In this document: piece after piece, positions 6,716 through 53,029 of the stretch | How the letters are laid out: each line of letters begins with the position of its first letter | How positions within the stretch are numbered: position 1 is the stretch's first letter | Source: a virus | Lineage: Duplodnaviria > Heunggongvirae > Uroviricota > Caudoviricetes | Virus record (IMG/VR): IMGVR_UViG_3300033146_005641 | Location: 119,352-183,351 of that record | Direction: 5' to 3' (one strand) | Length of the DNA: 64,000 nucleotides | The notes under the pieces: model-generated | Database searches by the model: none | What the model saw: the letters and a program-made list of their open reading frames with translations, nothing else | Told to the model about the DNA's origin: nothing | Translations under genes and position numbers: made by a program

Positions 6716-7039
6716 ATGAAAAAAGAATATTCTCAATGGGGATTAAATTTTATATTAGGTTTAAATCCTGCAAAATATAATTATGTAACTAATATAGGTG
6801 ATTTGGTAGATTTTAAAGGTGATAGTTCTAAGATGTATTTCGGAGTTATGGCTCAAGATATCGAAGACTATATAGAAAAACAAGGACATAATTCAAGAAA
6901 TTATAATATTCTTAACTATTCAGAAGATTATATGAGTGTTAACTACTATGAACTAATAGGTCCTATGATTAAATCTATTCAAGAACTAGAAGAAAAAGTT
7001 ACAAAGCTAGAACAAAAACTAAAGGATAAAGATGAATAA
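6716..7039 (+). CDS. hypothetical protein
   Basis: 107-aa ORF. ATG preceded by an A/T-rich leader. Confidence 0.4.
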   Translation: MKKEYSQWGLNFILGLNPAKYNYVTNIGDLVDFKGDSSKMYFGVMAQDIEDYIEKQGHNSRNYNILNYSEDYMSVNYYELIGPMIKSIQELEEKVTKLEQKLKDKDE

Positions 7040-23168: not shown

Positions 23169-23208
23169 CTTTAAGTCTTATTATACTATAATATATTATA
23201 TGAAAAAG
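23151..23208 (+). promoter_or_regulatory. junction cassette
   Basis: CCTCAATATTTTATATAGCTTTAAGTCTTATTATACTATAATATATTATATGAAAAAGATG. Confidence 0.5.
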
Positions 23209-23516: not shown

Positions 23517-23921
23517 ATGAGTATATTAGAAATCATAACACTAGGATATGCTGTAAATGTAGTAGCAATAATTATGGTCTTTTTATTAATCATCATACAG
23601 TCTTTTACTAAAATGAGTTTTTTAAATCATGTAGATAAGATGAAAGTTATTACGTATCAGCAATCTATTTGGAATAAATATTTATCAGCTAAAGAAAGAA
23701 TGAAAACCTTTAAGTTAAATTTTTTAGAGTCTAGAGATTTTAGTTTCTTATTTCCTTTTGCTTATATTTTAGAATTTTTAGTAGTCTTTTGGCACTTTTT
23801 AAAATTTGATTTAGATGTTTTTATTTTTGAAAGAATTAAAAGTAAGACACAAAGAATGGAAGATAAAATAACAAAATATAGTGATAATGAAGAAAAAAAT
23901 GATATTAATAACAGGCTCTAA
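23517..23921 (+). CDS. predicted membrane protein
   Basis: N-terminal hydrophobic segment ILEIITLGYAVNVVAIIMVFLLIIIQSF and a second one around FLFPFAYILEFLVVFW. Confidence 0.4.
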   Translation: MSILEIITLGYAVNVVAIIMVFLLIIIQSFTKMSFLNHVDKMKVITYQQSIWNKYLSAKERMKTFKLNFLESRDFSFLFPFAYILEFLVVFWHFLKFDLDVFIFERIKSKTQRMEDKITKYSDNEEKNDINNRL

Positions 23922-25081: not shown

Positions 25082-25089
25082 GGAAGTCA

Positions 25090-26962: not shown

Positions 26963-27752
26963 ATTTCAGTTTAATTTTTATATTAATACTATGTGTAATC
27001 AGAAATGTTCCTATTGTTATGCTAGAGCAGGCATGAAATGGAATACTATTTCTCCGTATGAAGAAATAATAAAAAACATCAATCTATTAATAAATAGACC
27101 TAAATGTATAATAAGTTTGATAGGTGGAGAGCCTACGCTTCATCCTAAATTTGAAAATATTTTAAGAAGCATAAAGGATCTTAATCATAACCTTCATATA
27201 TATACTAACGGAACCTCGTCTTTTTTTAATAATTTAAATTATGATTTATATAGAAAGTTCTTATGGACGTTTAGCTATCACGGAAAGTTTACGAATAACG
27301 AGGAGTTTAAGAGAAATATTTTAAAATTTATAAACAATAATATTAATATAGAATTGACGGTTCCAGCACAAAACTTTAATAAGGATATTTTAAGATTTAT
27401 TCAATATAATAAAATAAAGACAGTTATAACTTTTATACACGATAATTCTAAAACTCAATCTAAAGAAAATATAAAAAAATGGGTTTTAGAATTAGAAGAT
27501 GATAATATAAAAAATATGTCTAAATATTTTTATGAAGATGCCTACTATAAAGGATATACTTGTTATTACAATGAGATAGATGTTATAAATTCGAAAATGA
27601 GGACTAATGATTGTAATCATAATTTGAATCTTTTTATAGATGATAAAAATTTAGATTATATATTTTCTCTACCCTTAACGGTATGTAAAAGAGAGAAATG
27701 TAAAAGAGATTGTGCTTTTTTACTACCTAGGAAGCAAAATGATATTTTCTAA
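26952..27752 (+). CDS. radical SAM enzyme with SPASM-like C-terminus
   Basis: CNQKCSYCYA, GGEPTL, C-terminal CKREKCKRDCAF. Confidence 0.75.
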   Translation: MENRFQFNFYINTMCNQKCSYCYARAGMKWNTISPYEEIIKNINLLINRPKCIISLIGGEPTLHPKFENILRSIKDLNHNLHIYTNGTSSFFNNLNYDLYRKFLWTFSYHGKFTNNEEFKRNILKFINNNINIELTVPAQNFNKDILRFIQYNKIKTVITFIHDNSKTQSKENIKKWVLELEDDNIKNMSKYFYEDAYYKGYTCYYNEIDVINSKMRTNDCNHNLNLFIDDKNLDYIFSLPLTVCKREKCKRDCAFLLPRKQNDIF

Positions 27753-28626
27753 TAAAAACTCTATTAAAAATCACGATTTTTTTATTTTTGAATTGTTGAT
27801 CATAGAATTATGTAATTTTAAATGCAGTTATTGTTATATGAGAAATGAATCTCCTACATGGGGTAGCTTTAGTACGAAGAAAGAAATATTTAAAGTGATT
27901 AAAAAGCTAGAAGAATTAAATAATAAAGTCTCAATATGTTTGAGTGGAGGTGAAGCTAGTCTTCATCCTAATTTTTTAGAGTTTGTAGACTATATTACAA
28001 ATAGTGAGAAGATACATAGTCTTCATATTAATACTAATCTACAATTATCTGAAGAAAAAATAGAAAAGATACTAAAAATAGATTCAGACGTAAAATTTCA
28101 TATATCTTTTCATGCAGGACAATCCGATAAAGATTTTAAAATAAAATTAAAGAAAATTCCAAAAAAGAATCAGGAATTAAATATCATGATACACCCAGCA
28201 AAAAAATATAAAAAAGATATAGATGATATTGTGAAATTTTGTGATACTAATAATATATTATATAATATAAAGCCTATATTTATCAATAGTAAATTTAAAC
28301 CATCACAATACGTTATTGAGTCTATGAATTATAAAAACTCTAATAAAGAATATACTGATGGTAATAGAGATTATAATGATTATGATTTGTATAAAGAGGG
28401 TTTATTACCTATGAATACTCTCGGATGGGAGTGTTATTATATATTTTATACTATAGATTGCAAACAGGGAAATATTAAACAGATGTGTAGACTATATGAT
28501 GATTTAAATATTTTTAAAAATTTTGATTTTTTTAATAATTATGATTTATCTAAACCTATAATATGTTCTTTTAAGAATTCTTGTTTATGGGCTAGTTCGT
28601 TAGATCACTATAAGGTAAAAAAATGA
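27739..28626 (+). CDS. radical SAM enzyme
   Basis: CNFKCSYCYM, SGGEASL, C-terminal CSFKNSCLWAS. Start moved to the ATG at 27739 (AGGAAGCAAAATG) from the GTG at 27712 in the ORF track. Confidence 0.7.
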   Translation: MIFSNKNSIKNHDFFIFELLIIELCNFKCSYCYMRNESPTWGSFSTKKEIFKVIKKLEELNNKVSICLSGGEASLHPNFLEFVDYITNSEKIHSLHINTNLQLSEEKIEKILKIDSDVKFHISFHAGQSDKDFKIKLKKIPKKNQELNIMIHPAKKYKKDIDDIVKFCDTNNILYNIKPIFINSKFKPSQYVIESMNYKNSNKEYTDGNRDYNDYDLYKEGLLPMNTLGWECYYIFYTIDCKQGNIKQMCRLYDDLNIFKNFDFFNNYDLSKPIICSFKNSCLWASSLDHYKVKK

Positions 28627-29615
28627 GTCTAAGTGTTGAAAATATATCTCCGTACAGAGAGTATAAACTAATAGATCCTATAAAATCTATGGTTGGGATA
28701 ATGTTACATCCTGTATGTAATATGAAATGTTCTTACTGTTATCAGAAAGATATAATGAGCGTGTCTCAAAAGCAAAAAGATATATATTTAAGCTTTGTAG
28801 AAAAAGCATCAGAGTTTATAAATTTTCTATCTATTAATGGAGAAGACGGAATAGTTGTTTCTATAGAAGGAGGTGAGCCCTTTGTTATGATTGAAGTTTT
28901 AGAAAAGTTTTTAGAAAAATTATCTAATAATAATAAAGATCAAAACACATACCATAAAGAAATAATTATAGTTACTAATATGACTCAATTAGATAGTATG
29001 ATTTATATTTTAGATAAATTTAAAAATTTAAATATAACTCTCAACCCTAGTATTCACTATCATGAAATAGATAAAAAACAATTATATGATACTATTTCTA
29101 ATATATTAAAATTAAAAAAATATATTAAATATGTTAGGGCTATTTTAAAATTAGGCACCGATAGTGTACCTAAAACTCTCAGACCCCTATTAAGAATTCT
29201 AGAAGATAATAATATAGAAGTAGATATAGCCTCTATAATGTTTACTGGTCAAAAAAACGAACTGAATAAGCTATTTAAACTTCCCTCTTTAGAAAAAATG
29301 TCTATAAAAAATCAATTTAAAAATGGTATCTATAATAGTAACGAATTTTTTAATCCTTTAAACACGACTTTAGGTATAAAATGTACATCCTATTGCTGGT
29401 TTATATATTCTAATGGAGATGTAATAATGCACGAATGTAAAAACAGAGGAAAACCGAAAAATATATATACAGACCCTTTCGAAAATATACAAAACATGCC
29501 TAATACAGTAATATGCGGTAGTATGAATTGTGATCAATGTGATTTTTATGATAAATGGGATTCTTGGGAGCAGTGGGGTTGTGAATGGAATCCTAATGAG
29601 GACTATAATAAATGA
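28623..29615 (+). CDS. radical SAM enzyme with SPASM-like C-terminus
   Basis: CNMKCSYCYQ, EGGEPFV, C-terminal CGSMNCDQCDFYD. Confidence 0.75.
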   Translation: MSLSVENISPYREYKLIDPIKSMVGIMLHPVCNMKCSYCYQKDIMSVSQKQKDIYLSFVEKASEFINFLSINGEDGIVVSIEGGEPFVMIEVLEKFLEKLSNNNKDQNTYHKEIIIVTNMTQLDSMIYILDKFKNLNITLNPSIHYHEIDKKQLYDTISNILKLKKYIKYVRAILKLGTDSVPKTLRPLLRILEDNNIEVDIASIMFTGQKNELNKLFKLPSLEKMSIKNQFKNGIYNSNEFFNPLNTTLGIKCTSYCWFIYSNGDVIMHECKNRGKPKNIYTDPFENIQNMPNTVICGSMNCDQCDFYDKWDSWEQWGCEWNPNEDYNK

Positions 29616-30547
29616 TTATAATTTTTCCAATAGAGAACATGCCTAATATAACTTCTCAGTTAGTTGTAGCTATCGAATCTATAATAGACAACTTTAAAAA
29701 TACTAAATACGAGATCATAGTAGTAAATCATAACCACTCTAAACTACCTAAAACTATTTTAAAATATATAGAGTCTAAGAAAGAGGTTAGAATAATACAT
29801 AAAAAATTAACGAATAATAAGTTTTATTATAAGACCGAGAGTCATTTTATGGTAATGCCTGAGGTATTTAATTATGTAGTCGATCATTTTAGAGATGAGA
29901 GTTATTTGTTTTTAGATCCTGATGTGTATGTTAATAAAGACCTACCTCCTATAAATGAAAATGAAACATATGTTTTCAAACAACCTTTAAATTTTGGAGG
30001 CGAGGCTCTAAATTATTGGAATTGTAAAATATTAAATGAAATATATCCTCATCACTATGATACCTTCTTTATATATACTTCTGATAAAGACTTCGCCAAA
30101 AAATGGTTAGGAGAAAGCACTAGAATAGCTAAGATGGGTATTAATCATAAAGATAGAGTAGTAGGAAACAGACTTCAGCATTTTTGCGAAGAGTGTTCTA
30201 TACAAACTCTAATTAATAAAGGATATTCAATAAAAGATGCTAAAGAATTCTTCTTAGCTAATGCATATCTTAACAAAGAAATACAATGGAAAGGGTATAG
30301 TGTTTATCATTATGATTATTCTAAAATCCTAAATATGATGGATATAAATCCTAAATATAAAACTCTATATAGAGTTGTTGGAGGAAGATTAGACGAGGAA
30401 TCTGAAAAGAATTTGACTTTTGATGATAAACTATTAGAATTAGTAAAAAGAGAAATAGATAATTATTTAGAGAAAAATATTAAGCCGTCATTAAAAGAAA
30501 CTCTTTTTATAATGAGATTTGGAAAAGATTATGACTTCTCTGACTAA
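29612..30547 (+). CDS. hypothetical protein, possibly GT-A-like transferase
   Basis: 311 aa. FLDPDVYV acidic motif. No firm family recognised. Confidence 0.35.
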   Translation: MIIIFPIENMPNITSQLVVAIESIIDNFKNTKYEIIVVNHNHSKLPKTILKYIESKKEVRIIHKKLTNNKFYYKTESHFMVMPEVFNYVVDHFRDESYLFLDPDVYVNKDLPPINENETYVFKQPLNFGGEALNYWNCKILNEIYPHHYDTFFIYTSDKDFAKKWLGESTRIAKMGINHKDRVVGNRLQHFCEECSIQTLINKGYSIKDAKEFFLANAYLNKEIQWKGYSVYHYDYSKILNMMDINPKYKTLYRVVGGRLDEESEKNLTFDDKLLELVKREIDNYLEKNIKPSLKETLFIMRFGKDYDFSD

Positions 30548-31244
30548 AAAATCAAAACTAAGAAAAAAAATTATAGAATATAGTATAGAAAATAACCTAG
30601 GACATATTCCTAGTGCATTAAGTATGTTTAATTACTTGTTTTATTTAATCGGAGAGATAGATTTAAGGAAAGCTAATGTAATTATAGGAAAACCTTTCGG
30701 TTCTCAATCTTACTATTTGTTATGGAACTATTTTTATAGTCTAGATATAGATAATTTAAGCTACGGTGTAAAACATGATGAGATATCTTTTATAGATTAT
30801 TCAGAAGAAACTCTAGGAAATGCTTTAGGAGTTGCTGCAGGATATGCTATATCGTCAAATAGAATGACATGGTGTAATATTTCTGATGGAGCTCTTCAAA
30901 TGGGGTCCACCCTAGAAGCTATTCAATTTATAGGAAACAGAAAGTTAAATATTCTACTAACTATAGATTATAATGAAACTCAACTAACAGGAAGGATTGA
31001 AGAAATAATAGGTATGAACGTGAATAATATTTCAGAGTATTTTAAAAGTTTTGGGTGGGATTCTCAAATTATAGATTCTAAAAATATAAGAGAGGGTTTT
31101 TTTAAAAGAATTGCGGAAAACGAAGGTCCTAAAGTAGTTTTTATAAGAACTACGAAGGGTGATGGTATAGAAGAAATGGAGAAGAATCCTAGAGAATGGC
31201 ACTATAAAAAATTAAAGGATATCAATGAGGTTACATTTAAGTAA
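30519..31244 (+). CDS. transketolase N-terminal (TPP-binding) subunit, compact
   Basis: GHIPSALSMFNYLFY (GHxxSxLS) and DGALQMGSTLEAIQFIGNRKLNILLTIDYNETQLTG (GDG...N TPP-binding region). Confidence 0.65.
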   Translation: MEKIMTSLTKKSKLRKKIIEYSIENNLGHIPSALSMFNYLFYLIGEIDLRKANVIIGKPFGSQSYYLLWNYFYSLDIDNLSYGVKHDEISFIDYSEETLGNALGVAAGYAISSNRMTWCNISDGALQMGSTLEAIQFIGNRKLNILLTIDYNETQLTGRIEEIIGMNVNNISEYFKSFGWDSQIIDSKNIREGFFKRIAENEGPKVVFIRTTKGDGIEEMEKNPREWHYKKLKDINEVTFK

Positions 31245-41938: not shown

Positions 41939-42277
41939 TTATGAGGTTCTAACGTCTTTTACACGAATTCCGTCGATTCTATCAGCAGTAGTCATCAAAT
42001 AATAGTCACCGTTTTCCTCTTTTTTAACCATTCCTAAATCAAAAGAGTTTTGAGGCGGAAAATAAACGATATTTCCAATTTCTACCCCCTCTGCTTCGGG
42101 ACCTCTAGAAACAACTTCTCCATAATATGGTCTATCTGCTACACCTCCTTGCTTTACAGCTAATACAATACCGGAATCAGACATTAATTTTGTTTCGTCT
42201 ACTGGCGAAACCCTTATTACGATAATATTAGATTGTGGTGCAAACTCCCACCAATTTATCCATCCATTATTTTCCAT
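41939..42277 (-). CDS. GroES-like co-chaperonin (T4 gp31 analog)
   Basis: IVIRVSPVDETKLMSDSGIVLAVKQ...GEVVSRGPEA...VEIGNIVYF...DYYLMTTADRIDGI parallels GroES [61 protein letters not shown]. Confidence 0.55.
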   Translation of the reverse strand: MENNGWINWWEFAPQSNIIVIRVSPVDETKLMSDSGIVLAVKQGGVADRPYYGEVVSRGPEAEGVEIGNIVYFPPQNSFDLGMVKKEENGDYYLMTTADRIDGIRVKDVRTS

Positions 42278-42362
42278 TAATTGCCTTTATTTTAATTTAA
42301 ACATATTATATTATAATTAACTTAAAACATTATAAATAACCTATAATAAAAAAAGGAAGAAA

Positions 42363-43013
42363 ATGGCAGTAAGATTTTCAATAAGAAACGGTCAAGCAAC
42401 ACCTTCAGTAAGCGACTTAGAGCTTTTAGAGCTAGGTGCTGATGTAACAGATGCTAATAACCCTAGAATATATACTAAGACCTCGTCAGGAATTCATCCT
42501 ATTGGTGTAGGAGACGCCCTATCTTTAGGAGAGGTGTTACCTGAAAATTATGCTAGAACAGACATTAATGAGACGTTTGAACAAAATGTAACAGTTAACG
42601 GAACTCTTGATGCTACAGCCGAAAGAGCAAAATATGCCGATATTGCCGAGTACTACGAATGTGATAAAGAATACGAAGCCGGCGATATTTTAATGGTTGG
42701 TGAAGAAACAGAGGCTATTTTAGCTGATGGTTCTAAGATGATTATGGGGGTATGTTCTACAGCTCCTGCATATTTAATGAATACTAAAATTCAAGAAGAT
42801 GAAGAAGTAGAACATTATGCGCCTCTAGCTCTTAAAGGAAGAATTCCGGTTAAAATTACAGGTTCTGCAAAAAGAGGTGATTATATTATCCTAGATGTTA
42901 AAAATCCAGGAAAAGGAAGAGCCGTCAAAACGTATCCTAAAACTGAGGCTGAAAAATTATTTATTGGTGTTTGTGTAACGCCTGGTAAAAAGACTTGTGA
43001 AGTGAGGGTTTAA
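42363..43013 (+). CDS. hypothetical protein
   Basis: 216 aa. Divergently transcribed from the GroES-like gene. Confidence 0.4.
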   Translation: MAVRFSIRNGQATPSVSDLELLELGADVTDANNPRIYTKTSSGIHPIGVGDALSLGEVLPENYARTDINETFEQNVTVNGTLDATAERAKYADIAEYYECDKEYEAGDILMVGEETEAILADGSKMIMGVCSTAPAYLMNTKIQEDEEVEHYAPLALKGRIPVKITGSAKRGDYIILDVKNPGKGRAVKTYPKTEAEKLFIGVCVTPGKKTCEVRV

Positions 43014-43016
43014 AAA

Positions 43017-43472
43017 ATGTTTAAAAAATTGTTTATAGAAGACACAAAAAAGAAAAAAATTAACAGCAAATCTCTTAGTACCATGATGAAAAAATATAAA
43101 TTCTCACATAAAACGGTTACTGTATGGAGAAGAACTAATTTTGGATATACTAATATAGCTATAGCTCTCAATAAAGATGTATGGTTATATTATAGAGGTT
43201 CTAAAAATTCTATATCTATCGAATATAATAGTGAAAAATATTTAGTAGATGAGTCTAAACCTGATTTCAAAATGGCTGAATATCCTCACAGCGTAGGTCA
43301 TACAGAAGGATGGAAAGGTTTTAAAGTATCGCCAAGATCTTCTTTTTGGAGCTCTTTAATGAATTTTATAAACGATATTTTAGAAAATAACATTTCAGGT
43401 CCGCATTATATAGACAATAAGTTACAAAACGGATACGAACAATCGTCTAAATATCCTGATATGAGTTTTTAA
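43017..43472 (+). CDS. protein with MFKKLFIE N-terminal motif
   Basis: 151 aa. Confidence 0.4.
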   Translation: MFKKLFIEDTKKKKINSKSLSTMMKKYKFSHKTVTVWRRTNFGYTNIAIALNKDVWLYYRGSKNSISIEYNSEKYLVDESKPDFKMAEYPHSVGHTEGWKGFKVSPRSSFWSSLMNFINDILENNISGPHYIDNKLQNGYEQSSKYPDMSF

Positions 43473-43518
43473 TATTATATTAATATAATTATTATATAAT
43501 AAAAACAAAAGGAGACAT

Positions 43519-44649
43519 ATGTCTCAATGTCAGAATACTCGTAATGACGACTCGATTCACGTAGACATTAATACTACATCGATATGTAATATAGCGTGTA
43601 CATATTGTTCAGAAGGTAATGAGTGCGGTCTAAGTTCTTTATATCTTAAAAATACTCAAATAAAAGTAGAAGATTTAATTAATAAACTTAATAAAGATCC
43701 TGCAAAAGGTAAAACTATTAATTTTTGGGGCGGAGAACCTTTCATCAATTTCGACTTTTGTAGGACTATTATAGAGGAATTTAAAAAAGACCCCTCATTT
43801 TCTTTTTTCTTCTATACTAACGGAATTTTAGTTCCACAATATATAAAAATCTTAAAACAATGGAATGAGGAATTCGGAAAAGAAAAGGGATATGACGGGC
43901 AGCCCAGACTAATCATTCAGATTTCTTATGATGGAAAATGGTTAACAGATAACATTAGAATTGATAAAACAGGTAAGGGTACGTCCGAAAGAGTAGAAAA
44001 GGCTTTTAAACTATTAAAAGAAAATAATATAGAAACATCTCTAAAATCTGTTATATCTTCTGACGGATTTTCACATCTTTTTGAAAGTTATAGAGATTGT
44101 ATGGAGCTACAAGAGTTTTATAATCCTACTCCCGATTTATGGTCAGATAGAACAGAAGAAGAATTTGCCGAAGATTTAAAAATACTTGAAAAAGAATTAG
44201 AAAGGATTGCTTCATATATTGTCGCTAATAATTTAAAACCTGACTCTTTTTCTTGGTTTGGAATGTCTCGAGCTATTTGTTCAGTGGGTTCTAATATGAT
44301 TTCTGTAGATTTAGACGGAAAACTATATCCTTGTCACGCAGGAATGTATGGAGAAAGGATTGAACATGTTATGGGTCATATAGATAATTTTACAGAAGTA
44401 AAAGAGAGAGCTATGGAGGCGTTTAGAAAAATTAATTCTCATTTACCTGAAGAATGTCAAAAATGTGATGTTAATTTTTGTATGAAGTGTCAAATGGCTA
44501 ATTTTTCAAAATCAGCAGAACTAGATTACGCTAAAAAATTTACGGACTATCAAGCTAATTGGCAGGTGTGTAGATTATTTAAAGTAAATGACAAGTATAA
44601 TAAAATTGTTCAATTTATGAGTCAGAATCCGGAAGAGTTAAATATATGA
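43519..44649 (+). CDS. radical SAM enzyme with SPASM domain
   Basis: CNIACTYCSE, GGEPFI, C-terminal multi-Cys CQKCDVNFCMKCQMANF plus upstream CSVGS...C...CHAG. Confidence 0.75.
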   Translation: MSQCQNTRNDDSIHVDINTTSICNIACTYCSEGNECGLSSLYLKNTQIKVEDLINKLNKDPAKGKTINFWGGEPFINFDFCRTIIEEFKKDPSFSFFFYTNGILVPQYIKILKQWNEEFGKEKGYDGQPRLIIQISYDGKWLTDNIRIDKTGKGTSERVEKAFKLLKENNIETSLKSVISSDGFSHLFESYRDCMELQEFYNPTPDLWSDRTEEEFAEDLKILEKELERIASYIVANNLKPDSFSWFGMSRAICSVGSNMISVDLDGKLYPCHAGMYGERIEHVMGHIDNFTEVKERAMEAFRKINSHLPEECQKCDVNFCMKCQMANFSKSAELDYAKKFTDYQANWQVCRLFKVNDKYNKIVQFMSQNPEELNI

Positions 44650-44684
44650 GATATCTTCCATAAAGAAGCAAAGGTGGAAATTTA

Positions 44685-45791
44685 ATGGCTGTTTTTGATA
44701 CGTTTACGTTAGAATTAAAAATTTCAGATCAATGTTCTATGAGATGTCCGTATTGTTATGAAACTTTTACAGATACATATATGACTAAAGAAACTTTTGA
44801 TAGGTCTCTAGTAAAAGTAATAGATATGATGGGGAGATCAGAAACTAAAAAACTTAATTTAAGTTTTTTTGGTGGAGAACCTATGATGAATTGGGAGCTA
44901 ATAGAACATGCTACAAAAGTTCTTAGAAAGCTACCCATAGAGGTTACTTTAGTAGTTATATCTAATATGACTCTTATAGATGAATATAAAGTTAAATGGT
45001 TAAAAGAGAATAATGTGGGGGTATCTTGGTCATTCGATGGAATATCTTCTAATGAAACCAGACCTCTAGCTACCCAATTTATAAATCCAAAAGCAGACGG
45101 AACATCTTATAAAAGTACCCTAGATTTATATAAAGATAAGATAGATCTAATATTGTCTCTTACGAATGGGTGTAAGGTTATGGTGTGGCCAGGTAATTCT
45201 AAACAAATGACAGAGAATTTAGAATTTTTTGTAGATAGTGGAATTATAGCACCCGATTTTTCTTTGATAAGAGATGATGTATGGTCTAAAGAAGATATTA
45301 TTAATTTTAGAGATGATATTAGAAGATTAGGTGATAGATATATTAAATATATAAAAGACGAGGTTTACGTAAATGTTGGTTTCTTTACACTTTGTATTCT
45401 TGATAATATATTTGGATTAACCTTTCAAAAAAGATCTTTCGGGTGTTTTGCAGGTACTACAGGTGCAGTAATGACGACAGATGGAAAATTTTATCCTTGT
45501 GCTAGATTTTCAGATAAAAAAGTTATGGAAATTACACCAGAATATTCTTTTACCTACTGGCAAGAAAAGTTTAAGCCTGAAAACTATGATAAGTGTCAGT
45601 CTTGTGATTTATATGATGTTTGTAATGCAGGGTGTTTATATTCTCAAATTAGAAATAATAATAAACCTTTAGATAGTATATGTGAGCTATATCATATTAT
45701 ACAAGAGGAAACGCAAAGAGTGGTTCACGAATTAAAAGACGAACCAACGTTTCATCAAGTAATAAATAACATTTTTAAAAATATAGGATAG
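44685..45791 (+). CDS. radical SAM enzyme with SPASM domain (anSME-like)
   Basis: CSMRCPYCYE, FGGEPMM, C-terminal CQSCDLYDVCNAGC. Overall layout like anaerobic sulfatase-maturating enzymes. Confidence 0.75.
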   Translation: MAVFDTFTLELKISDQCSMRCPYCYETFTDTYMTKETFDRSLVKVIDMMGRSETKKLNLSFFGGEPMMNWELIEHATKVLRKLPIEVTLVVISNMTLIDEYKVKWLKENNVGVSWSFDGISSNETRPLATQFINPKADGTSYKSTLDLYKDKIDLILSLTNGCKVMVWPGNSKQMTENLEFFVDSGIIAPDFSLIRDDVWSKEDIINFRDDIRRLGDRYIKYIKDEVYVNVGFFTLCILDNIFGLTFQKRSFGCFAGTTGAVMTTDGKFYPCARFSDKKVMEITPEYSFTYWQEKFKPENYDKCQSCDLYDVCNAGCLYSQIRNNNKPLDSICELYHIIQEETQRVVHELKDEPTFHQVINNIFKNIG

Positions 45792-45795
45792 AAAT

Positions 45796-46020
45796 ATGAG
45801 TTGTGAAATAGGATATGAAAATATAAGTATAGAAGAGTTAGAGAAACAATTAGACGATGCTAAGAAATCTTTAGTAGATAAAAAATATAAAAATTATGAT
45901 TCTCCAGAACATCTATTTAATTATAATATAAATTTCGATAGGTTTTTAGTAGATATGTCTTATATATTAGAGAAAGCTAAAAATGTGGAGAGCATTGATG
46001 ATAGATATAGAATGGCTTAA
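45796..46020 (+). CDS. small acidic protein
   Basis: 74 aa. Overlaps the next ORF. Confidence 0.3.
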   Translation: MSCEIGYENISIEELEKQLDDAKKSLVDKKYKNYDSPEHLFNYNINFDRFLVDMSYILEKAKNVESIDDRYRMA

Positions 46021-46768
46021 AAAATTATTTAGAAATATTTTACGGATTGAAGGTGATATATCTGGAGAGTGGATGTTTGTTATTTTTAATGATTTTTATA
46101 TGAGACATTTATGGTATAATAAATTCAAAAAAATAGATAGATGTTTTAGAAGATGGAAAAAAGTTTGTAAAGATCCTAAGCTAGAAACAGAATGGAATAA
46201 ACCCGAAATTAACGAAGCTTTAGAAGCGGTTCAAAAGTCTTATGATGAGGGTATAGGCTATTTGTATAAATTCGATGAGGAGGATTTAGCTGAATTTATC
46301 TATCCTAAAGCCAAGAGAGATCTTTTGGTAAATGCAAAACTGGTATATTTCTCAAAACAAGATTCTAGGGATATAGAATTCTTAAAAGAAAATATAATAG
46401 AGATTTATAACGAAAAAAATAAATATTTAAGTAGAATAACTTTATTGTATAACTATATAATTAGAATAAAAGATGAACTGTACGGAGACATATATAATGA
46501 GGTGATTAATTCTAATACTAGGTTTACCTTTCAATTAATATGGCTAACACAGAAAACTCTACATCCTCAAGACTATAAGAGAATATTAAAGAAGGTTTTT
46601 AAAAACACCTCTCAGTCCGAACAAAAATTAATAAAAATGTTTTTAGAGTCCAGAATAGGTAAATATAAAGATAATCCTAGATTTTTAAAGGCTAGAGATC
46701 TTGATTCAGAGAAAAGAGAAATAGCTAAAGAATTAATAGAAGAAATTTGGACTAAGCATGGAAGATAA
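45998..46768 (+). CDS. hypothetical protein
   Basis: Start placed at the ATG at 45998, 5 nt after GGAGAG. The ORF track starts at 45983. Confidence 0.4.
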   Translation: MIDIEWLKKLFRNILRIEGDISGEWMFVIFNDFYMRHLWYNKFKKIDRCFRRWKKVCKDPKLETEWNKPEINEALEAVQKSYDEGIGYLYKFDEEDLAEFIYPKAKRDLLVNAKLVYFSKQDSRDIEFLKENIIEIYNEKNKYLSRITLLYNYIIRIKDELYGDIYNEVINSNTRFTFQLIWLTQKTLHPQDYKRILKKVFKNTSQSEQKLIKMFLESRIGKYKDNPRFLKARDLDSEKREIAKELIEEIWTKHGR

Positions 46769-47606
46769 CCTTAGAACTAATGTAGTATTTTTTACTACTA
46801 CGTGTAATTTAGCCTGTACATATTGTTATCAACACGTAAAAGACTATCCTCATAAAGAAACTTCTAAAGAAGAACTTATAGAAATAGTAGACAGAACAGT
46901 AGAAAGAGAGGGGACTGATTCTCAAACTCTATTCATTCTGTTTGGAGGAGAGCCTACTACAAGATGGGAAAATGTAGAGTTTTTTATGGATTATGCATAT
47001 TTTATTAAGGAAAATGTACAGTTTAATATAGTTACTAATGGAATAAAGTTTAAAGATGACAGATTCTTGAAAAAATTTATATCTAATACTCACTATAAGG
47101 AGGGTAGACTTAAGCTAGAAATAAGTTTTGACGGTATCGAAGGAAATTCTGAAAGAATATATCCGAATGGTAAAGATTCTACAAAAGATGTAGTAGAAGT
47201 ATTATTTAAATTAAAAGAGACAAATACTAAATATAGAATAAGATATACAGTACATAAGAAAAATGTTAAAAACTTTGAAAACGATATTCTAAAGATAATG
47301 AAATACTTTAAACCTGAAAGATTAATTTTAAGCGAGTACGAAGATGATCTATCTTCAGATGAGTTAAAATATGTAGAGAATATTAAGAATATCTTAATCA
47401 AAAAATATTATAATAATGAAATAAACATACCAATATGTATGAAATATGATGAAATGTGTGCTGTGTGTGGTAAATGCGGAAATAAACATATTGAGGATTT
47501 TTCTGTAAATTTAGGAAGTAGTTTTTCAGTACAGAAAAAAATAACATTCGATACGTTCGACATGTTTAATAAATTAGCAAAAAATAAGGATAAAAATGAA
47601 AAATAA
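46758..47606 (+). CDS. radical SAM enzyme with C-terminal Cys cluster
   Basis: CNLACTYCYQ, FGGEPTT, C-terminal CMKYDEMCAVCGKCGN. Confidence 0.75.
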   Translation: MEDNLRTNVVFFTTTCNLACTYCYQHVKDYPHKETSKEELIEIVDRTVEREGTDSQTLFILFGGEPTTRWENVEFFMDYAYFIKENVQFNIVTNGIKFKDDRFLKKFISNTHYKEGRLKLEISFDGIEGNSERIYPNGKDSTKDVVEVLFKLKETNTKYRIRYTVHKKNVKNFENDILKIMKYFKPERLILSEYEDDLSSDELKYVENIKNILIKKYYNNEINIPICMKYDEMCAVCGKCGNKHIEDFSVNLGSSFSVQKKITFDTFDMFNKLAKNKDKNEK

Positions 47607-47982
47607 AATGTCAGAGGATAGAAAAAAATTAAGTTTAGAAGAAAGATCTAAAAAATTTTTAGACATTACTTTAAGAATAAATGAAATTAGTGAAGAATAT
47701 AATGAAATAGATCCCATAGTAGGATATAGATTTCAAGGAATGTTCAGAACTTTTATCTCTCTTATGAAAAGAGCAGAAGAAAAAGATATGACTAATTTAG
47801 AATCTCAAATTAAAGTATTTGAAGAAATGTTTGATTTTAGTTTTGAAGAAGAAGTTGAAAAAAGAGTTAAAGAGGTATTAGGTGACGAATATCACAGAAA
47901 TGTTCAAGAAGATATAAATAAAATAGATGATGAGGTTCTAGCTAATATTAAAAAGAACATTTCAGAATATTTAAAGGAATAG
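47596..47982 (+). CDS. hypothetical protein
   Basis: 128 aa, charged helical. Confidence 0.4.
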   Translation: MKNKMSEDRKKLSLEERSKKFLDITLRINEISEEYNEIDPIVGYRFQGMFRTFISLMKRAEEKDMTNLESQIKVFEEMFDFSFEEEVEKRVKEVLGDEYHRNVQEDINKIDDEVLANIKKNISEYLKE

Positions 47983-47984
47983 AA

Positions 47985-48551
47985 TTGGCTTACGAAACAG
48001 AAATAGATCCTTTCGGAAGTACGGCGTGGGATAATATAGTTTATGATATTAATGATACGCCCGTAGGAGAAATAATAGACGAAGGCGACTGGATAGAATT
48101 GCAAAATATATTTAATCAAGAAATCTCTAGAAGAAGAAACGAAAATCCTAATTTTGGTACGGCAGCATCAACAGGAACTATTATAGATGATGTTCATTAT
48201 AATGATTTCGCCGATGCCATGAATAGCCTTAATGCTTATTATACGGGATCTCCGGGGGGTGCTTGGGCGGGTATTTGTAGCTCTAATAATCCTGTTGGTG
48301 GAATATGGCACTGTAATAAAAAAGAAGGATACGTACCTGTTGTACCTCACGTGTCTCCTGGTCAACTAATCACAGCGACTCAAATTAACAAAATTAAAGA
48401 CGAGATAAAAAAAGCAGGTAACTCATGTTTCTGTAACTGTAACTACTGTGCGTGTAATTGTAACTTTTGTACTTGTAATTGTAATTTTTCTTGTCCTTGT
48501 AATTGTCACTATTCAGATGAAAGACTTAAAACTAATATCTTATATCTATAA
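47985..48551 (+). CDS. protein with extreme Cys-Asn repeat C-terminus (candidate radical SAM substrate or metal-binding tail)
   Basis: C-terminal NSCFCNCNYCACNCNFCTCNCNFSCPCNCHY, 11 Cys in 27 residues. Confidence 0.5.
   Translation: MAYETEIDPFGSTAWDNIVYDINDTPVGEIIDEGDWIELQNIFNQEISRRRNENPNFGTAASTGTIIDDVHYNDFADAMNSLNAYYTGSPGGAWAGICSSNNPVGGIWHCNKKEGYVPVVPHVSPGQLITATQINKIKDEIKKAGNSCFCNCNYCACNCNFCTCNCNFSCPCNCHYSDERLKTNILYL
48426..48509 (+). repeat. coding hexanucleotide microsatellite (TGTAAY/TGTRMY)n encoding the CN repeats
   Basis: TGTTTCTGTAACTGTAACTACTGTGCGTGTAATTGTAACTTTTGTACTTGTAATTGTAATTTTTCTTGTCCTTGTAATTGTCAC. Confidence 0.7.
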
Positions 48552-48597
48552 CACTCATAAATAATCTCACCTTAAGTTTCTTATACTATAATATGGT

Positions 48598-50028
48598 ATG
48601 AGAAACTATAAAAATTCAAACGACCTAATAACATATCTTTGTATAGACTACCTAGAATCTAAAGGCTATAAATTTTTAGAGAATAGAGGATATACTATTT
48701 CTGTGGAAAAAGATGCCGATAAAAATTTTTATTGGACATCTGATTCACCTTTTAAAATATTTCATCCTGTAGAACATAAGACTCACAACTATTTTAAAGA
48801 AATTTCTAAGTTGAGAGAATTTAAAAAATTATGGGGTGAGAAATGTGATGAAGACCTCAATGAAATATTTCAAGAAGAGGATATAAACTCCTATAAAATA
48901 AAAACTAATGTACAAGATCTGGATAATTTTAAAGATGATGTTAGTAATTTTTTAGAGAATTATAAATTTTTAAAGATTTCCTCGCCTATGGCTACTAGAA
49001 AAAGTATTATAATTGAGGAGACACTTAAGCAATCCTTAAGAAAGAGGTTAAGAGTTTTATTTATTACTCCTAGAGTTTCTTTATCCTATGATATCCATAA
49101 AAAATATTTTCCTCACTTATCTCACTATAAACATAGTAATTATACTCTAGGAGATAGTCTAGTAGTTCAATTTGATAGTTTACATAAGTTTGACATGGAT
49201 TATTTTGATATAGTAATATTAGATGAGGTTACCAGTTTAATGTTATATATGAGCGATACGTATGAGGGAAAGGCTGAAAGATATAGAAAAAATCTTCAGA
49301 AATTTTATTCTCTAAAAGATAAAAAATTCTTATTATTAGATGCTTTTCTTTTAAAGTTTCCGCTAGAATCTGAAGACGATAGATCTCTCGGTATATTAAA
49401 TAATTTTAGAGAAGATATAAAAATAACTGAATATGTTAATAAAAACAATTTTACAGGAAGAATAATTAGAGAAGCTAAAAAGAATCCTATATCGGTTTCA
49501 AGTAATGAAAAAAGATTTTTAGTAAAAATTAAAGAAAAACTAGAAAAAAGAGGATTAAGATGTTTGATGCTTAATTCCGAAACCGTAGATAAAGATAGTG
49601 TATATGAAGAGTTTGCAAAAAAAGAAACGGATTATGATGTTATATTATATTCACCTACGTTAACAGTCGGAGTAAGTATTTTTTCTAATATTAAAAATCA
49701 TTTTCATTACGATTTATCCGGAACTATTGACGTTATCAGTTCTATTCAGATGATAAGAAGAGTTAGAAACGCTAAACACATTCATTATTATATTCAGGGT
49801 AGAAGAAGTTTTCTTCCAACGGAGGAAAAAATTATTCAAAGACATTTAGAGGATAGTTTTAAAATTATTAACGAATTTGGAGAATCTTTCGGTATTAATA
49901 AAATAGGTGAAATGTTGAGTAAAATAAAAAGAATAAAAAACGTTTTATTAAATTCTCACAAATATGCTTTTAGAGATTTATTAAAAAGACAATTTAAAGA
50001 AGTAGAATTTAATAAATTGGAGATATGA
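48598..50028 (+). CDS. P-loop NTPase, helicase-like (divergent Walker A SPMATRKS, Walker B ILDEVTSL)
   Basis: 476 aa. The motifs are degenerate and the family is not recognised. Confidence 0.35.
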   Translation: MRNYKNSNDLITYLCIDYLESKGYKFLENRGYTISVEKDADKNFYWTSDSPFKIFHPVEHKTHNYFKEISKLREFKKLWGEKCDEDLNEIFQEEDINSYKIKTNVQDLDNFKDDVSNFLENYKFLKISSPMATRKSIIIEETLKQSLRKRLRVLFITPRVSLSYDIHKKYFPHLSHYKHSNYTLGDSLVVQFDSLHKFDMDYFDIVILDEVTSLMLYMSDTYEGKAERYRKNLQKFYSLKDKKFLLLDAFLLKFPLESEDDRSLGILNNFREDIKITEYVNKNNFTGRIIREAKKNPISVSSNEKRFLVKIKEKLEKRGLRCLMLNSETVDKDSVYEEFAKKETDYDVILYSPTLTVGVSIFSNIKNHFHYDLSGTIDVISSIQMIRRVRNAKHIHYYIQGRRSFLPTEEKIIQRHLEDSFKIINEFGESFGINKIGEMLSKIKRIKNVLLNSHKYAFRDLLKRQFKEVEFNKLEI

Positions 50029-50290: not shown

Positions 50291-50980
50291 ATGAGGTTTA
50301 GAGACACTAAATATGGCGATTTAACAGGACAAACCTATGAAGGAGATATTGATGTAAGTGGTTTAAACTTAACATCTCTAGAGGGTGCTCCAGAGGTAGT
50401 TAAAGAAGGATTTTACTGTAATGATAATCAATTAACTTCTCTAGAGGGTGCTCCTAAGGTAGTCGACGGTAGTTTTTATTGCTATGATAATCAATTAACC
50501 TCTCTAGAGGGTGCTCCTAAGGTAGTTAGAGGAGATTTTGATTGTTATAATAATAAACTAACTTCTCTAGAAGGGGCTCCTGAGGTAGTTAAAGAAGGAT
50601 TTTACTGTAATGAAAACAGTCTAACTTCTCTAGAGGGTGCTCCTGAGGTAATCGGTGGTAATTTTAATTGCACTTACAACAATTTAACTACTCTAGAAGG
50701 AGCTCCAGAGACAGTTGGTGGTAGTTTTAATTGCTCTAAAAATAATCTAACTTCTCTAGAAGGTGCTCCAGAGGTAGTTAATGGTAATTTTAATTGTTAT
50801 AATAATAAACTTACTTCTCTAGAAGGCGCTCCTGAGAGAGTTAGAAGAGATTTTGATTGTTCAGAAAACGATCTAACTTCTCTAGAGGGATTACCTTTTT
50901 CTAGAGAAATAAGGTCCGATTTTGATGAAAGAGAGATTAATGATTATATTAAAGATAGATTTCCCTATCGTTTTATATGA
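50291..50980 (+). CDS. LTSLEGAP 21-aa repeat protein (paralog)
   Basis: MRFRDTKYGDLTGQTYEGDIDVSGLNLTSLEGAPE..., C-terminal ...RFPYRFI. Confidence 0.7.
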   Translation: MRFRDTKYGDLTGQTYEGDIDVSGLNLTSLEGAPEVVKEGFYCNDNQLTSLEGAPKVVDGSFYCYDNQLTSLEGAPKVVRGDFDCYNNKLTSLEGAPEVVKEGFYCNENSLTSLEGAPEVIGGNFNCTYNNLTTLEGAPETVGGSFNCSKNNLTSLEGAPEVVNGNFNCYNNKLTSLEGAPERVRRDFDCSENDLTSLEGLPFSREIRSDFDEREINDYIKDRFPYRFI

Positions 50981-51033
50981 TTTTAAGTCTTATTATACTA
51001 TAATATCTTATATAAAGAGAAAAGGATAGAAAG
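50963..51033 (+). promoter_or_regulatory. junction cassette
   Basis: CCCTATCGTTTTATATGATTTTAAGTCTTATTATACTATAATATCTTATATAAAGAGAAAAGGATAGAAAGATG. Confidence 0.55.
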
Positions 51034-51912
51034 ATGAAGTTTAGAGATACTAAATATGGCGATTTAACAGGACAACCTTATGAAGGTGATGTTGATGTAA
51101 GTGGTTTAAACTTAACATCTCTAGAGGGTGCTCCTGAGGCGGTCGATGGAGATTTTAATTGTTCTAGTAACAATCTAACCTCTCTAGAGGGTACTCCTAA
51201 GGTAGTTGAAGGAGATTTTTACTGCTCTCACAACAATTTAACTTCTCTAGAAGGAGCTCCTGAGATAGTTAATGGTAATTTTAATTGCACTTACAACAAT
51301 TTAGCCTCTCTAGAAGGGGCTCCGGAGGTAATAGATGGTAGTTTTTACTGCTATGATAATCAATTAACTTCTCTAGAAGGGGCTCCTAAGGCAGTTAAAG
51401 GAGATTTTGATTGTTATAATAATAAACTTACTTCTCTAGAAGGTGCTCCAGAGGTAGTTAAAGAAGGATTTTACTGTAATGAAAACGGTCTAACCTCTTT
51501 AGAAGGAGCTCCAGAGATAGTTGATGGTAGTTTTTACTGCTATGATAATCGATTAACCTCTCTAGAAGGAGCTCCTGAGGTAGTCGGTGGTAATTTTAAT
51601 TGCTCTAAAAACAATCTAGCTTCTCTAGAAGGAGCTCCTAAGGTAGTTAATAATAATTTTGATTGCTCTAAAAATAATCTAGTCTCTCTAGAAGGATCTC
51701 CTGAGGTAGTCGGTGGTAGTTTTTACTGCTATGATAATCGATTATCTTCTCTAGAAGGTGCTCCTAAGATAGTTAAAGAAGGGTTTCACTGTAATAAAAA
51801 CAATCTAACTTCTCTAGAGGGAATACCCTATTCTAAAGGAATAATAGCTGATTTTAGTAAACTAGAAGTTAATGATTACCTAAAATCTAAATTTCCTTAT
51901 CATTTTATCTGA
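51034..51912 (+). CDS. LTSLEGAP 21-aa repeat protein (paralog)
   Basis: MKFRDTKYGDLTGQPYEGDVDVSGLNLTSLEGAPE..., C-terminal ...KFPYHFI. Confidence 0.7.
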   Translation: MKFRDTKYGDLTGQPYEGDVDVSGLNLTSLEGAPEAVDGDFNCSSNNLTSLEGTPKVVEGDFYCSHNNLTSLEGAPEIVNGNFNCTYNNLASLEGAPEVIDGSFYCYDNQLTSLEGAPKAVKGDFDCYNNKLTSLEGAPEVVKEGFYCNENGLTSLEGAPEIVDGSFYCYDNRLTSLEGAPEVVGGNFNCSKNNLASLEGAPKVVNNNFDCSKNNLVSLEGSPEVVGGSFYCYDNRLSSLEGAPKIVKEGFHCNKNNLTSLEGIPYSKGIIADFSKLEVNDYLKSKFPYHFI

Positions 51913-51961: not shown

Positions 51962-53029
51962 ATGACGTTTAAAGATACTAAGTATGGTGATTTAACAGGA
52001 CAAACCTATAAAGGTGATATTAATGTATGTGGTTTAGATTTAACCTCTCTAGAAGGGGCTCCAGAGGTAGTTGATGGTAGTTTTTACTGCTATGATAATC
52101 AACTAACCTCTCTAGAAGGATCTCCTGAGGTAGTCGATGGTAATTTTTACTGTTATGATAATCAATTAACTTCTCTAGAAGGGGCTCCAGAGGTAGTTGA
52201 TGGTAATTTTTATTGTCATAATAATCAATTGACTTCTCTAGAAGGATCTCCGGAGGTAGTCAGCGGTATTTTTTATTGTTATAATAATAGACTTACTTCT
52301 CTAGAGGGGTCTCCTAAGATAGTTAAAGGAGATTTTTATTGCTCTTACAACAATTTAACTTCTCTAGAGGGGGTTCCGGAGGTAGTTGATGGTAGTTTTT
52401 ATTGCTATGATAATCGATTATCCTCTCTAGAAGGAGCTCCTAGGATAATCGATGGTAATTTTTATTGTTATAATAATCGACTAATTTCTCTAGAAGGTGC
52501 TCCAGAGGCAGTTGATGGTAATTTTTATTGTTATAATAATCGATTAACTTCTCTAGAAGGCTCTCCAGAGGTAGTCGACGATAATTTTGATTGTTCAGAA
52601 AATGATCTAGCTTCTCTAGAAGGGTCTCCTAGAGTAGTTAATAATAATTTTGATTGCTCTAAAAATAATCTAGTCTCTCTAGAAGGATCTCCTGAGGTAG
52701 TTAGAGGATATTTTGATTGTTCAAACAATCAACTAACTTCTCTAGAGGGAGCTCCAGAGATAGTTAAAGAAGGCTTTTACTGTAATAAAAACGATCTAGT
52801 TTCCCTAGAGGGGGCTCCTGAGGTAGTCGATGGTAATTTTAATTGTGCTAAAAATAATCTAACTACGCTAGAAGGGGCTCCTAAGGTAGTTGATGGTAAT
52901 TTTTACTGCTATGATAATCGATTAACTTCTCTAGAGGGATTACCTTTTTCTAGAGAAATAAGGTCTGATTTTAGTAAACTAGAAGTTAATGATTACTTAA
53001 AATCTAAATTCCCTTATCATTTTATCTGA
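51962..53029 (+). CDS. LTSLEGAP 21-aa repeat protein (paralog, longest)
   Basis: MTFKDTKYGDLTGQTYKGDINVCGLDLTSLEGAPE..., C-terminal ...KFPYHFI. Confidence 0.7.
   Translation: MTFKDTKYGDLTGQTYKGDINVCGLDLTSLEGAPEVVDGSFYCYDNQLTSLEGSPEVVDGNFYCYDNQLTSLEGAPEVVDGNFYCHNNQLTSLEGSPEVVSGIFYCYNNRLTSLEGSPKIVKGDFYCSYNNLTSLEGVPEVVDGSFYCYDNRLSSLEGAPRIIDGNFYCYNNRLISLEGAPEAVDGNFYCYNNRLTSLEGSPEVVDDNFDCSENDLASLEGSPRVVNNNFDCSKNNLVSLEGSPEVVRGYFDCSNNQLTSLEGAPEIVKEGFYCNKNDLVSLEGAPEVVDGNFNCAKNNLTTLEGAPKVVDGNFYCYDNRLTSLEGLPFSREIRSDFSKLEVNDYLKSKFPYHFI

Follow-up and report, generated by a model that had tools for sequence, protein, structure and literature searches.

Radical SAM enzymes encoded beside a cysteine-heptad fibre-type protein with a split Peptidase_S74 chaperone: a candidate virion protein maturation module in T4-like phages

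The window analysed here, a stretch of 64,000 nucleotides from a tailed virus (positions 119,352 to 183,351 of the IMG/VR virus record IMGVR_UViG_3300033146_005641, Caudoviricetes), encodes between 43,519 and 48,551 three radical S-adenosylmethionine (SAM) enzymes, designated rS1, rS2 and rS3, and a 188-aa protein with a tandem array of cysteine (Cys) heptads. Pairing of such enzymes with a Cys-heptad protein recurs across many distantly related phages, and the enzymes therefore probably cross-link the Cys-heptad protein. Overall, modification of this protein by the enzymes was considered reasonably probable, and thioether stapling as the specific outcome is put forward only tentatively. The region may be a late-gene module of the phage for production and maturation of a small, trimeric virion protein of the fibre type. 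The original prediction, a reading of the sequence without database searches, had listed the open reading frames (ORFs) of this region and all of them were present. Its idea of an enzyme-substrate pair for protein maturation gained support from co-occurrence down to about 25% enzyme identity and from the thioether-maturase relatives of the enzymes, and is kept here as a proposal.

The Cys-heptad gene (47985..48551, + strand) uses a TTG start codon and encodes an N-terminal helical part, an ITATQINKIKDEIKK helix, the array and a short C-terminal stub. The array CFCNCNYCACNCNFCTCNCNFSCPCNC (48426..48506, +) covers residues 148-174 and contains 12 Cys in the units CFCNCNY, CACNCNF, CTCNCNFS and CPCNC, after which the protein continues with HY-SDERLKTNILYL. 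A tail with 11 Cys in the last 30 residues had been predicted; the Cys-rich tail is real, and the count was corrected to 7 Cys in the last 30 residues and 12 in the last 41. Within the window, CxCxC was found in the 188-aa protein alone (ORFs of at least 60 aa), and the array motif was kept in hundreds of metagenomic proteins. The Cys array is not a chance feature.

A search of a 5.8-billion-protein collection produced 45 homologues of the 188-aa protein, many of them with a precomputed match to PF13884 (Peptidase_S74, 'chaperone of endosialidase'). When 1.84 billion cluster representatives were searched with a profile, 131 family members appeared at E ≤ 1e-30, each representing a 50%-identity cluster, and 566 at E ≤ 1e-10. 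The family plan comprised a variable N-terminus, a helix ITAxxINxxIDKxxxAG, a variable number of heptads and an invariant Y-S-D-x-R-L-K. From 716 heptads in 246 distinct proteins the consensus was C-x-C-[N/D]-C-N-[Y/F], with Thr at position 2 in 58% of the heptads and frequencies of 0.70 for Asn4, 0.26 for Asp4, 0.95 for Asn6, 0.85 for Tyr7 and 0.10 for Phe7. The number of units per protein ranged from 2 to more than 12 and the protein sizes from 141 to 534 aa. The family is large and entirely unannotated. A scan of bacterial and archaeal genomes, one for each of 185,579 species, showed three weak matches, all on contigs of metagenome-assembled genomes. The family is essentially virus-restricted, and a bacterial origin or a prophage-borne ribosomally synthesised and post-translationally modified peptide (RiPP) was rejected on the same result. 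A tblastn search of INPHARED with the Cys-rich protein showed no match, probably due to low-complexity masking, because the motif exists in Campylobacter phages. Finally, Foldseek against BFVD showed nothing at E ≤ 0.001, and no chain resembling the Cys array was found in the PDB.

The three enzymes rS1 (43519..44649, +; 376 aa), rS2 (44685..45791, +; 368 aa) and rS3 (46758..47606, +; 282 aa) contain the CX3CX2C motif at C23/27/30, C17/21/24 and C16/20/23, respectively, and rS1 has GGEP at 71. Their scores with Pfam Radical_SAM (PF04055) were 48.8, 45.0 and 55.4 bits, above the gathering score of 29.5. SPASM domains were identified by TIGR04085 in rS1 (34.7) and rS2 (34.8; cut-off 27) and by PF13186 in rS1 (29.1; cut-off 21.5). 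Across the 31-66 homologues collected for the three enzymes, the CX3CX2C Cys were 97-100% conserved. The auxiliary Cys of rS1 (C254, C272, C313, C316, C321, C324 and C351) and the SPASM Cys of rS2 (C254, C272, C304, C307, C313, C317 and C333) were 100% conserved in 59-66 distinct homologues, and rS2 was the best-conserved component of the module. No SPASM match was found for rS3 in the Pfam and NCBIfam scans; it has four C-terminal Cys only (C227-X6-C234-X2-C237-X2-C240), all of them 100% conserved, and is missing from some lineages. The description of all three as SPASM enzymes was thus upheld for rS1 and rS2 and reduced for rS3 to a four-Cys motif.

The best NCBIfam match for all three enzymes was the PapB ranthipeptide maturase (NF047865; 77.7, 121 and 71 bits for rS1, rS2 and rS3), and the nearest PDB entries were CteB 5WGG for rS1 (9.4e-10), CteB for rS2 (1.9e-15) and SkfB 6EFN for rS3 (1.4e-6). 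By sequence similarity, the nearest characterised or solved relatives of all three (PapB, CteB, SkfB) are Cys-thioether formers. Membership in the PapB family was rejected, as 71-121 bits is far under the equivalog cut-off of 340. The enzymes had also been called anSME-like. Enzymes of the anSME type recognise C/S-x-P/A-x-R in their substrate; no such motif is present in the 188-aa protein and the scores with TIGR03942 were 58.5, 49.6 and 50.1 bits, where the cut-off is 349, and this label was abandoned. A SCIFF system (TIGR03974) was rejected at 58, 66 and 48 bits against 425, with alignments which begin at model positions 99-103 and lack the N-terminal domain. It also failed on the substrate, which has 188 aa with heptad repeats and is not a six-Cys precursor of about 45 aa. 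No N-terminal RiPP recognition element (RRE) domain was found in rS1.

The original prediction was open to refutation by relatives in which enzymes and Cys-rich protein do not co-occur; co-occurrence was found in both directions. Homologues of rS1/rS2(/rS3) were on the same strand, usually within 1.5 kb, in about 40 of 46 viral loci located through the Cys motif, and a Cys-repeat gene was within 10 kb in 70 of 80 viral loci located through the rS2 profile, counts which overstate independence because the loci are phylogenetically related (large myoviruses). Several exceptions among the Cys-motif loci were contig ends. With rS2 lineages defined at 70% identity, 32 of 37 had a Cys array, or 33 of 37 when the degenerate array of locus L113 was counted. 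The lineages without an array were L122 (contig end), the Campylobacter phages (dispersed genes), L082 and L112. The pairing persisted with one to four tandem paralogues of the Cys-heptad gene (CYS) and in at least six gene orders: rS1-rS2-o74-rS3-o128-CYS, rS2-rS3-rS1-CYS, rS2-rS1-CYS, CYS-rS1-rS2-rS3, rS2-rS3-CYS-rS1 and rS1-CYS-CYS-rS2-rS3.

Enzyme pairs with 24-27% identity to rS2 were found to adjoin proteins with an altered repeat unit. Several loci among L118-L131 have CICNSDCSCNNVCSCHNDCGCNY (CxCNxD hexads) and, after it, SDERLK with a complete S74 domain; the repeat is CHSNCHSNCHSD (CHSN tetrads) in L116 and CTCNVDCTCNVD (CTCNVD) in L110. Altered-repeat proteins with an S74 site have the same SDxRLK. 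The pair Cys(i)-Asn/Asp(i+3) was kept in every repeat variant, and exchange of Asn with Asp and of Tyr with Phe was tolerated. This co-variation of enzyme and repeat is the most telling point for a link, and the rearrangements together with the co-variation argue for a functional link, kinship of the loci notwithstanding. As a separate observation, a 170-aa CQ-repeat protein (…CQRCQGCQITTCQ…) is encoded near radical SAM genes in a distant locus (L128, 211-723).

The C-terminal stub SDERLKTNILYL (48513..48548, +) corresponds to the first ~12 residues of a Peptidase_S74 domain, with Ser and Lys at catalytic-dyad spacing; the full PF13884 domain was not found in the 188-aa protein. A stand-alone remainder was identified at 6716..7039 (+; 107 aa), which matched PF13884 positions 15-57 of 58 with 22.5 bits (gathering score 22) and the released neck appendage chaperone of phage GA-1 (3GUD, chain residues 26-90) at 4.9e-5. 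The PF13884 score is marginal alone, and at least 30 homologous stand-alone fragments adjoin stub-type genes. Among 235 family members, 54 have the full S74 domain and 79, including the window protein, have the stub (…SDERLKxxIxY[LMFI]-stop). The Cys-heptad protein is the sole ORF of the window with a convincing stub of the S74 type. The only PDB match of the Cys-heptad family was 3GUD, the chain of which starts with SDERHKTDI; cleavage is thus expected just before the Ser of SDERLK, and the array would become the C-terminal end of the mature protein.

In most stub-type relatives, homologues of ORF 6716-7039 (84-107 aa) directly follow the last Cys gene with a stub (L012, L017-L020, L037, L038, L087, L113 and L049); in L021 and L046 they are 4-5 kb off. 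In L038 a single fragment gene follows four stub-type paralogues. At the junctions of stub and fragment, a TAA stop was followed by a TAATG overlap or by a short, lineage-variable spacer with GGAG/AGGA and a start codon. These are genuine junctions of stop codon, Shine-Dalgarno sequence and start codon, so the chaperone is stably split after its first strand. In the window the fragment gene is ~41 kb from the Cys-heptad gene, beside a gp15-like gene and other fibre genes. No description of a split S74 domain was found in the literature. The tail and fibre block next to ORF 6716-7039 included a 784-aa protein with Phage_fiber_rpt repeats (1929-4283, −), a 387-aa protein with YadA-head repeats (4371-5534, −) and a T4 gp15-like tail sheath stabiliser (5536-6321, −); none of these three ends in an S74 stub. 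In addition, L037 (9501-11824) and L038 (8030-10860) have three or four tandem Cys-heptad paralogues which differ in their N-terminal parts, have almost the same array and precede a single S74 fragment gene. The middle paralogue of L037 has a full S74 domain and its neighbours have stubs. The tandem paralogues suggest heteromeric fibres or a cassette of alternative tips.

In the proposed mechanism, the 188-aa protein would fold like other S74-chaperoned fibres, with the array directly before the S74 site SDERLK. The Ser/Lys dyad (12 residues) would stay on the fibre protein and ORF 6716-7039 would supply the remainder of the chaperone in trans, and we infer that the array is the segment nucleated by the S74 chaperone in a trimeric fibre element. 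The enzymes rS1, rS2 and, where present, rS3 would act on the array in the reducing cytoplasm, aided by o74 and o128, two small acidic proteins of the same operon. As SPASM-type enzymes, rS1 and rS2 could each hold the SAM cluster and two auxiliary [4Fe-4S] clusters, and rS3 would have one extra four-Cys site. The likeliest reaction would be H abstraction from a side-chain or backbone carbon of the conserved Asn/Asp and subsequent coupling to a Cys sulfur, resulting in thioether bridges; the Cys(i)-Asn/Asp(i+3) pair of every repeat variant fits such Cys-to-Asn/Asp thioether formation. PapB, NxxcB and QhpD are precedents for Cys-to-Asp/Asn-type thioethers, with the Asp/Asn beta-carbon as the bonding atom in PapB-family products, and ranthipeptide- and sactipeptide-type maturases are precedents for Cys-to-Asp/Asn/Thr thioethers. 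Such bridges would staple the rod covalently and make it redox-inert; they would replace disulfides in the cytoplasm and be inert outside the cell. The complete picture, of a fibre rod stapled by radical SAM chemistry (thioether or related C-S/C-C bonds) and folded by a split S74 chaperone acting in trans on paralogous clients, is a possibility held with some doubt.

Among cultured phages, the Cys-heptad motif was found in Campylobacter group II phages only. The homologues were CPT_0180, CPt10_1891 (gp145) and IBB_35 gene 3-9. Seven CTCDCNY heptads were seen in CPt10 gp145 (534 aa), the 21-bp repeats of which have been annotated and left uninterpreted. Homologues of rS1 and rS2 were present in the group II phages (CP220, CPt10, CP21 and IBB_35), in which the genes are dispersed. 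The product of IBB_35 gene 3-9 (60,318 Da), an orthologue of CPt10 gp145, was among 38 virion proteins identified by tandem mass spectrometry, with 2.6% coverage (PMC3322345), so that presence in virions, one of the checks suggested originally, was indicated for a distant homologue. The 11-12 radical SAM genes of these phages were called 'highly unusual' in 2010 and 2012 and the 21-bp intragenic repeat was mentioned, with no link drawn between them (PMC2853527, PMC3322345). No prior description of the Cys-heptad motif or of radical-SAM-matured virion proteins was found in the literature. CPt10 (L104) also encodes, near radical SAM genes, a 69-aa CKNCINCSNCKNCFDCEDC… Cys-repeat protein (17838-18047).

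Several findings weigh against modification of the array by the enzymes. The usual substrates of radical SAM peptide maturases are short unfolded peptides and not fibre proteins; the searches showed neither an RRE nor any leader-like element for recognition, and for o74 and o128 there was no match to a known family. All three enzymes are far under the cut-off of every characterised family, and the enzyme chemistry is therefore not readable from homology. L043 and L036 have the array with no enzyme within 10 kb, L002 has an rS3-like gene only, and in the Campylobacter phages the rS2 homologue is ~33 kb from the array gene. The virion support is one mass spectrometry identification at 2.6% coverage, of the distant homologue IBB_35 gene 3-9. 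An AlphaFold2 monomer left the array unmodelled (predicted local distance difference test scores of 33-44) and is unreliable there, so the trimeric rod was deduced from the S74 context alone. Finally, the Cys density of the array (43%), in the CxC spacing typical of metal-thiolate sites, also suits metal binding. This is the main rival explanation, in which CxCxC from three chains would coordinate metal ions or Fe-S clusters along the fibre axis, much as in metallothionein or at the iron-binding HxH sites in the needle of T4 gp37, and the radical SAM enzymes would do something else or would depend on or share this Fe-S/metal chemistry; in one version, the protein would be an Fe-S store or scaffold for a phage with eight radical SAM enzymes. 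Metal sites on fibre axes are established for T4 gp37 and gp12, the position of the array just before a trimerising S74 chaperone implies three-fold symmetry, and the window has eight Fe-S-dependent enzymes. However, a metal site would leave unexplained why two or three specific SPASM-type enzymes stay with the array when genes are rearranged and change together with the repeat unit, as well as the constraint on Asn/Asp4 (96%), Asn6 (95%) and Tyr/Phe7, and the array occurs in some phages with no large radical SAM complement shown. Metal binding was judged unlikely, and still worth serious consideration.

Another rival, in which the enzymes would have their target elsewhere and would share an island of fibre or accessory genes with the Cys-array gene through co-inheritance alone, is rather improbable. 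The candidate targets would be the upstream fibre-like protein, a glycan or nucleotide-sugar (suggested by the other radical SAM cluster of the window) or a host protein. A fibA-like fibre gene is often upstream of the enzymes, the module in relatives is contiguous with further radical SAM and sugar-type genes, and all loci are from related large myoviruses, with counts that are not fully independent. Co-inheritance does not sit well, however, with six gene orders and different flanking genes, with the translational coupling of rS3, o128 and the Cys-heptad gene, or with a link which holds to ~25% enzyme identity with a matching change of the repeat unit; many loci without fibA keep enzymes and array, and SPASM enzymes of the same sequence neighbourhood are peptide or protein modifiers. 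A diffusible RiPP, in which the Cys-rich C-terminus would be excised as a bacteriocin-like or signalling thioether peptide and the N-terminal 147 residues would be a very long leader, was given very little credence. The enzyme type matches, the tandem copies of L037 and L038 resemble multiple precursors, and the S74 Ser site could free a C-terminal fragment. That site is C-terminal to the array, however, and cleavage there would keep the array attached to the large protein; neither an exporter or immunity gene nor a protease upstream of the array was seen, and the proteins of 141-534 aa form a virus-only family with a homologue in virions. The earlier term RiPP-like was accordingly kept for the enzyme type and dropped for the substrate, a fibre-type protein with an S74 site and no evident leader, RRE, protease or exporter. 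RiPP membership was rejected on the substrate sizes, on the lack of an RRE, protease or transporter family in the operon, and on a sole cleavage site C-terminal to the array.

Comparison of the favoured reading, modification of the array by the radical SAM enzymes, with known systems showed partial likenesses only. Like the ranthipeptide, SCIFF and sactipeptide maturases (PapB, CteB, NxxcB, SkfB), the module has radical SAM enzymes with SPASM/twitch auxiliary clusters beside a Cys-rich substrate. Unlike them, its enzymes score 3-5 fold under the cut-offs and have no RRE (the CteB alignment starts at about residue 100 of CteB). In contrast to the ~45-aa leader-core peptides of ranthipeptide/SCIFF systems, its substrates are fibre-type proteins of 141-534 aa with repeats of 7, 6 or 4 residues, and the module is phage-encoded and probably late-expressed. 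QhpD, of the QhpD/QhpC system, is a SPASM radical SAM enzyme which installs several Cys-Asp/Glu thioethers in the small Cys-rich gamma subunit of quinohemoprotein amine dehydrogenase, a substrate that remains in a protein complex and is not a secreted peptide. Its model TIGR03906 matched rS2 at 7e-21; the score, however, was 74 bits against a cut-off of 453, the context is unrelated, and the QhpD system has no repeat array or fibre chaperone. The CXXX-repeat peptide system (TIGR04115/TIGR04119), CefB and CcpM similarly pair a radical SAM/SPASM enzyme with a target of tandem short Cys repeats. TIGR04115 aligned with rS1 end to end (residues 17-357 with profile positions 6-352 of 359; 3.9e-15), and L116, a distant relative, has a CHSN repeat that is literally a tetrad. 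In contrast, rS1 scored 56 against a cut-off of 350, and these systems are found in bacteria, have small peptides as targets and lack a characterised chemistry. As in the S74 fibres and spikes (K1F endosialidase, GA-1 neck appendage 3GUD and T5 L-shaped tail fibre), SDERLK with Ser and Lys five apart is directly after the trimerised segment; unlike in these, the domain is cut after ~12 residues and the remainder has its own gene, which gives a two-gene system presumed to work in trans. Overall, a radical SAM/SPASM maturase with a Cys-repeat substrate is known, and the proposed substrate class (a fibre-type protein) and the split chaperone arrangement are new.

Should the enzymes act on the array as proposed, peptide chemistry by radical SAM enzymes would no longer be confined to small secreted natural products and would include a structural protein of the virion. 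The Cys-heptad protein would then be the first virion protein matured by such enzymes, and its irreversible, redox-insensitive cross-links would offer a virus an alternative to disulfides that it could install inside the reducing cytoplasm. It would also explain part of the radical SAM gene load in Campylobacter group II phages, which are culturable and used for biocontrol, and in their relatives. Whatever the array chemistry, the split S74 shows cleanly, in nature, how a chaperone that was intramolecular can turn into a gene of its own, which is useful for understanding and engineering the folding of fibres.

The module is part of a tight operon with intergenic gaps of 3, 46, 35, 4, −38, −11, −11 and 2 nt from fibA216 to the Cys-heptad gene. 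The first gene, fibA216 (42363..43013, +), encodes a short fibre-like protein which matched phrog_19602 (tail fiber protein) at 3.3e-10; in its C-terminal part, the matches were to PHROGs of tail fibres and, at a weak level, to the intramolecular chaperone domain Peptidase_G2. Homologues of fibA with 175-2008 aa were found ahead of the enzyme block in many relatives. In L014/L015 (3916-10480) a 2008-aa fibA-like fibre protein is directly before a Cys-heptad gene with 27 Cys; these contigs end ~0.9-1.6 kb downstream, so the absence of enzymes there is not judgeable. The second gene, o151 (43017..43472, +; 151 aa, basic), had 0 homologues in ~130 loci and is probably outside the module. Two further genes were conserved. 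o74 (45796..46020, +; 74 aa, acidic, pI 4.75) has an HLFxYxxDxxxFL motif and was kept in 50 loci, nearly always directly upstream of rS3. o128 (47596..47982, +; 128 aa, acidic, pI 4.92) overlaps rS3 by 11 nt, stops 2 nt before the Cys-heptad gene and was kept in 39 loci, nearly always directly after rS3 and with the Cys-heptad gene as the next gene. Both were also kept in the scrambled gene order of L046, with o128 upstream of rS3. By this conservation, o74 and o128 are putative module-specific small acidic accessory proteins. The genes rS3, o128 and Cys-heptad are translationally coupled. Pfam scans of all o74 and o128 family members showed no PqqD/RRE and no consistent family. The gene o261 (45983..46768, +; 261 aa) was found in the closest relatives only and appears to be a lineage-specific insertion between o74 and rS3; the interleaved ORFs had been described as small and acidic, which is correct for o74 and o128 and not for this basic protein (pI 9.2).

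The T4-type late-promoter consensus TATAAATA was rarer than chance in the window (13 seen against ~31 expected), and 11 of the 13 sites were within 90 nt upstream of a same-strand start (null mean 0.7), at positions 4310, 6676, 11851, 37153, 38226, 38230, 38675, 41905, 42331, 47913 and 54168. One copy (42331..42338, +) is 24 nt upstream of fibA216 and a second (47913..47920, +) is 64 nt upstream of the Cys-heptad gene. Relatives do not conserve the motif upstream of the Cys gene (9%, compared with 5-6% upstream of the enzyme genes); it is window-specific and was therefore not used as family-level evidence. Another TATAAATA site is 15 nt before the radical SAM gene at 11874. Scans of 42000-48700 for generic sigma-70 promoters and terminators gave chance-level results. 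A second promoter-like motif, TATACTATAAT (at most one mismatch), was enriched, with 29 copies seen against 13 expected and 0 of 100 shuffles reaching 29. Its copies are mostly on the + strand, 5-31 nt upstream of gene starts including those of ORF 6716 and of the helicase at 48598, with examples at 6699-6709, 23182-23192, 48582-48592 and 50994-51004, and they probably mark a temporal class other than that of the TATAAATA sites.

Generally, the window is part of a T4-like myovirus with ~28% G+C and encodes topoisomerase II subunits, a gp32-like single-stranded DNA-binding protein, a large terminase and an RnlA/gp63-like protein. A megablast search of the region against INPHARED phages showed no match and no close relative. 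A total of eight radical SAM genes were found, the three of the module and, in 11874-12875 and 23881-31244, those at 11874, 25090, 26952, 27712 and 28623. The last four are among sugar-type genes, with RmlD-like (23881), GT2 (24464), ADI-like (25931) and transketolase-like (30519) neighbours. In many relatives (L003, L007, L008, L012, L020, L022-24, L037, L038, L040 and L045), homologues of these genes follow the Cys-heptad gene at a distance of 3-9 kb and form one large radical SAM super-cluster. Downstream of the Cys-heptad gene in the window, three tandem paralogues (50291-50980, 51034-51912 and 51962-53029) are made up almost wholly of units of ~22 residues that resemble leucine-rich repeats (NxLTSLEGAPEVVxGxFxCxxN), with one or two Cys in each, and have N- and C-terminal ends common to all three. 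Finally, a 112-aa ORF at 41939-42277 (−) is a homologue of CPt10 gp147, annotated as 'co-chaperonin GroES'. CPt10 gp147, the gp32-like protein and the RnlA/gp63-like 'tail fiber attachment catalyst' also adjoin the Cys-heptad gene in Campylobacter phages.

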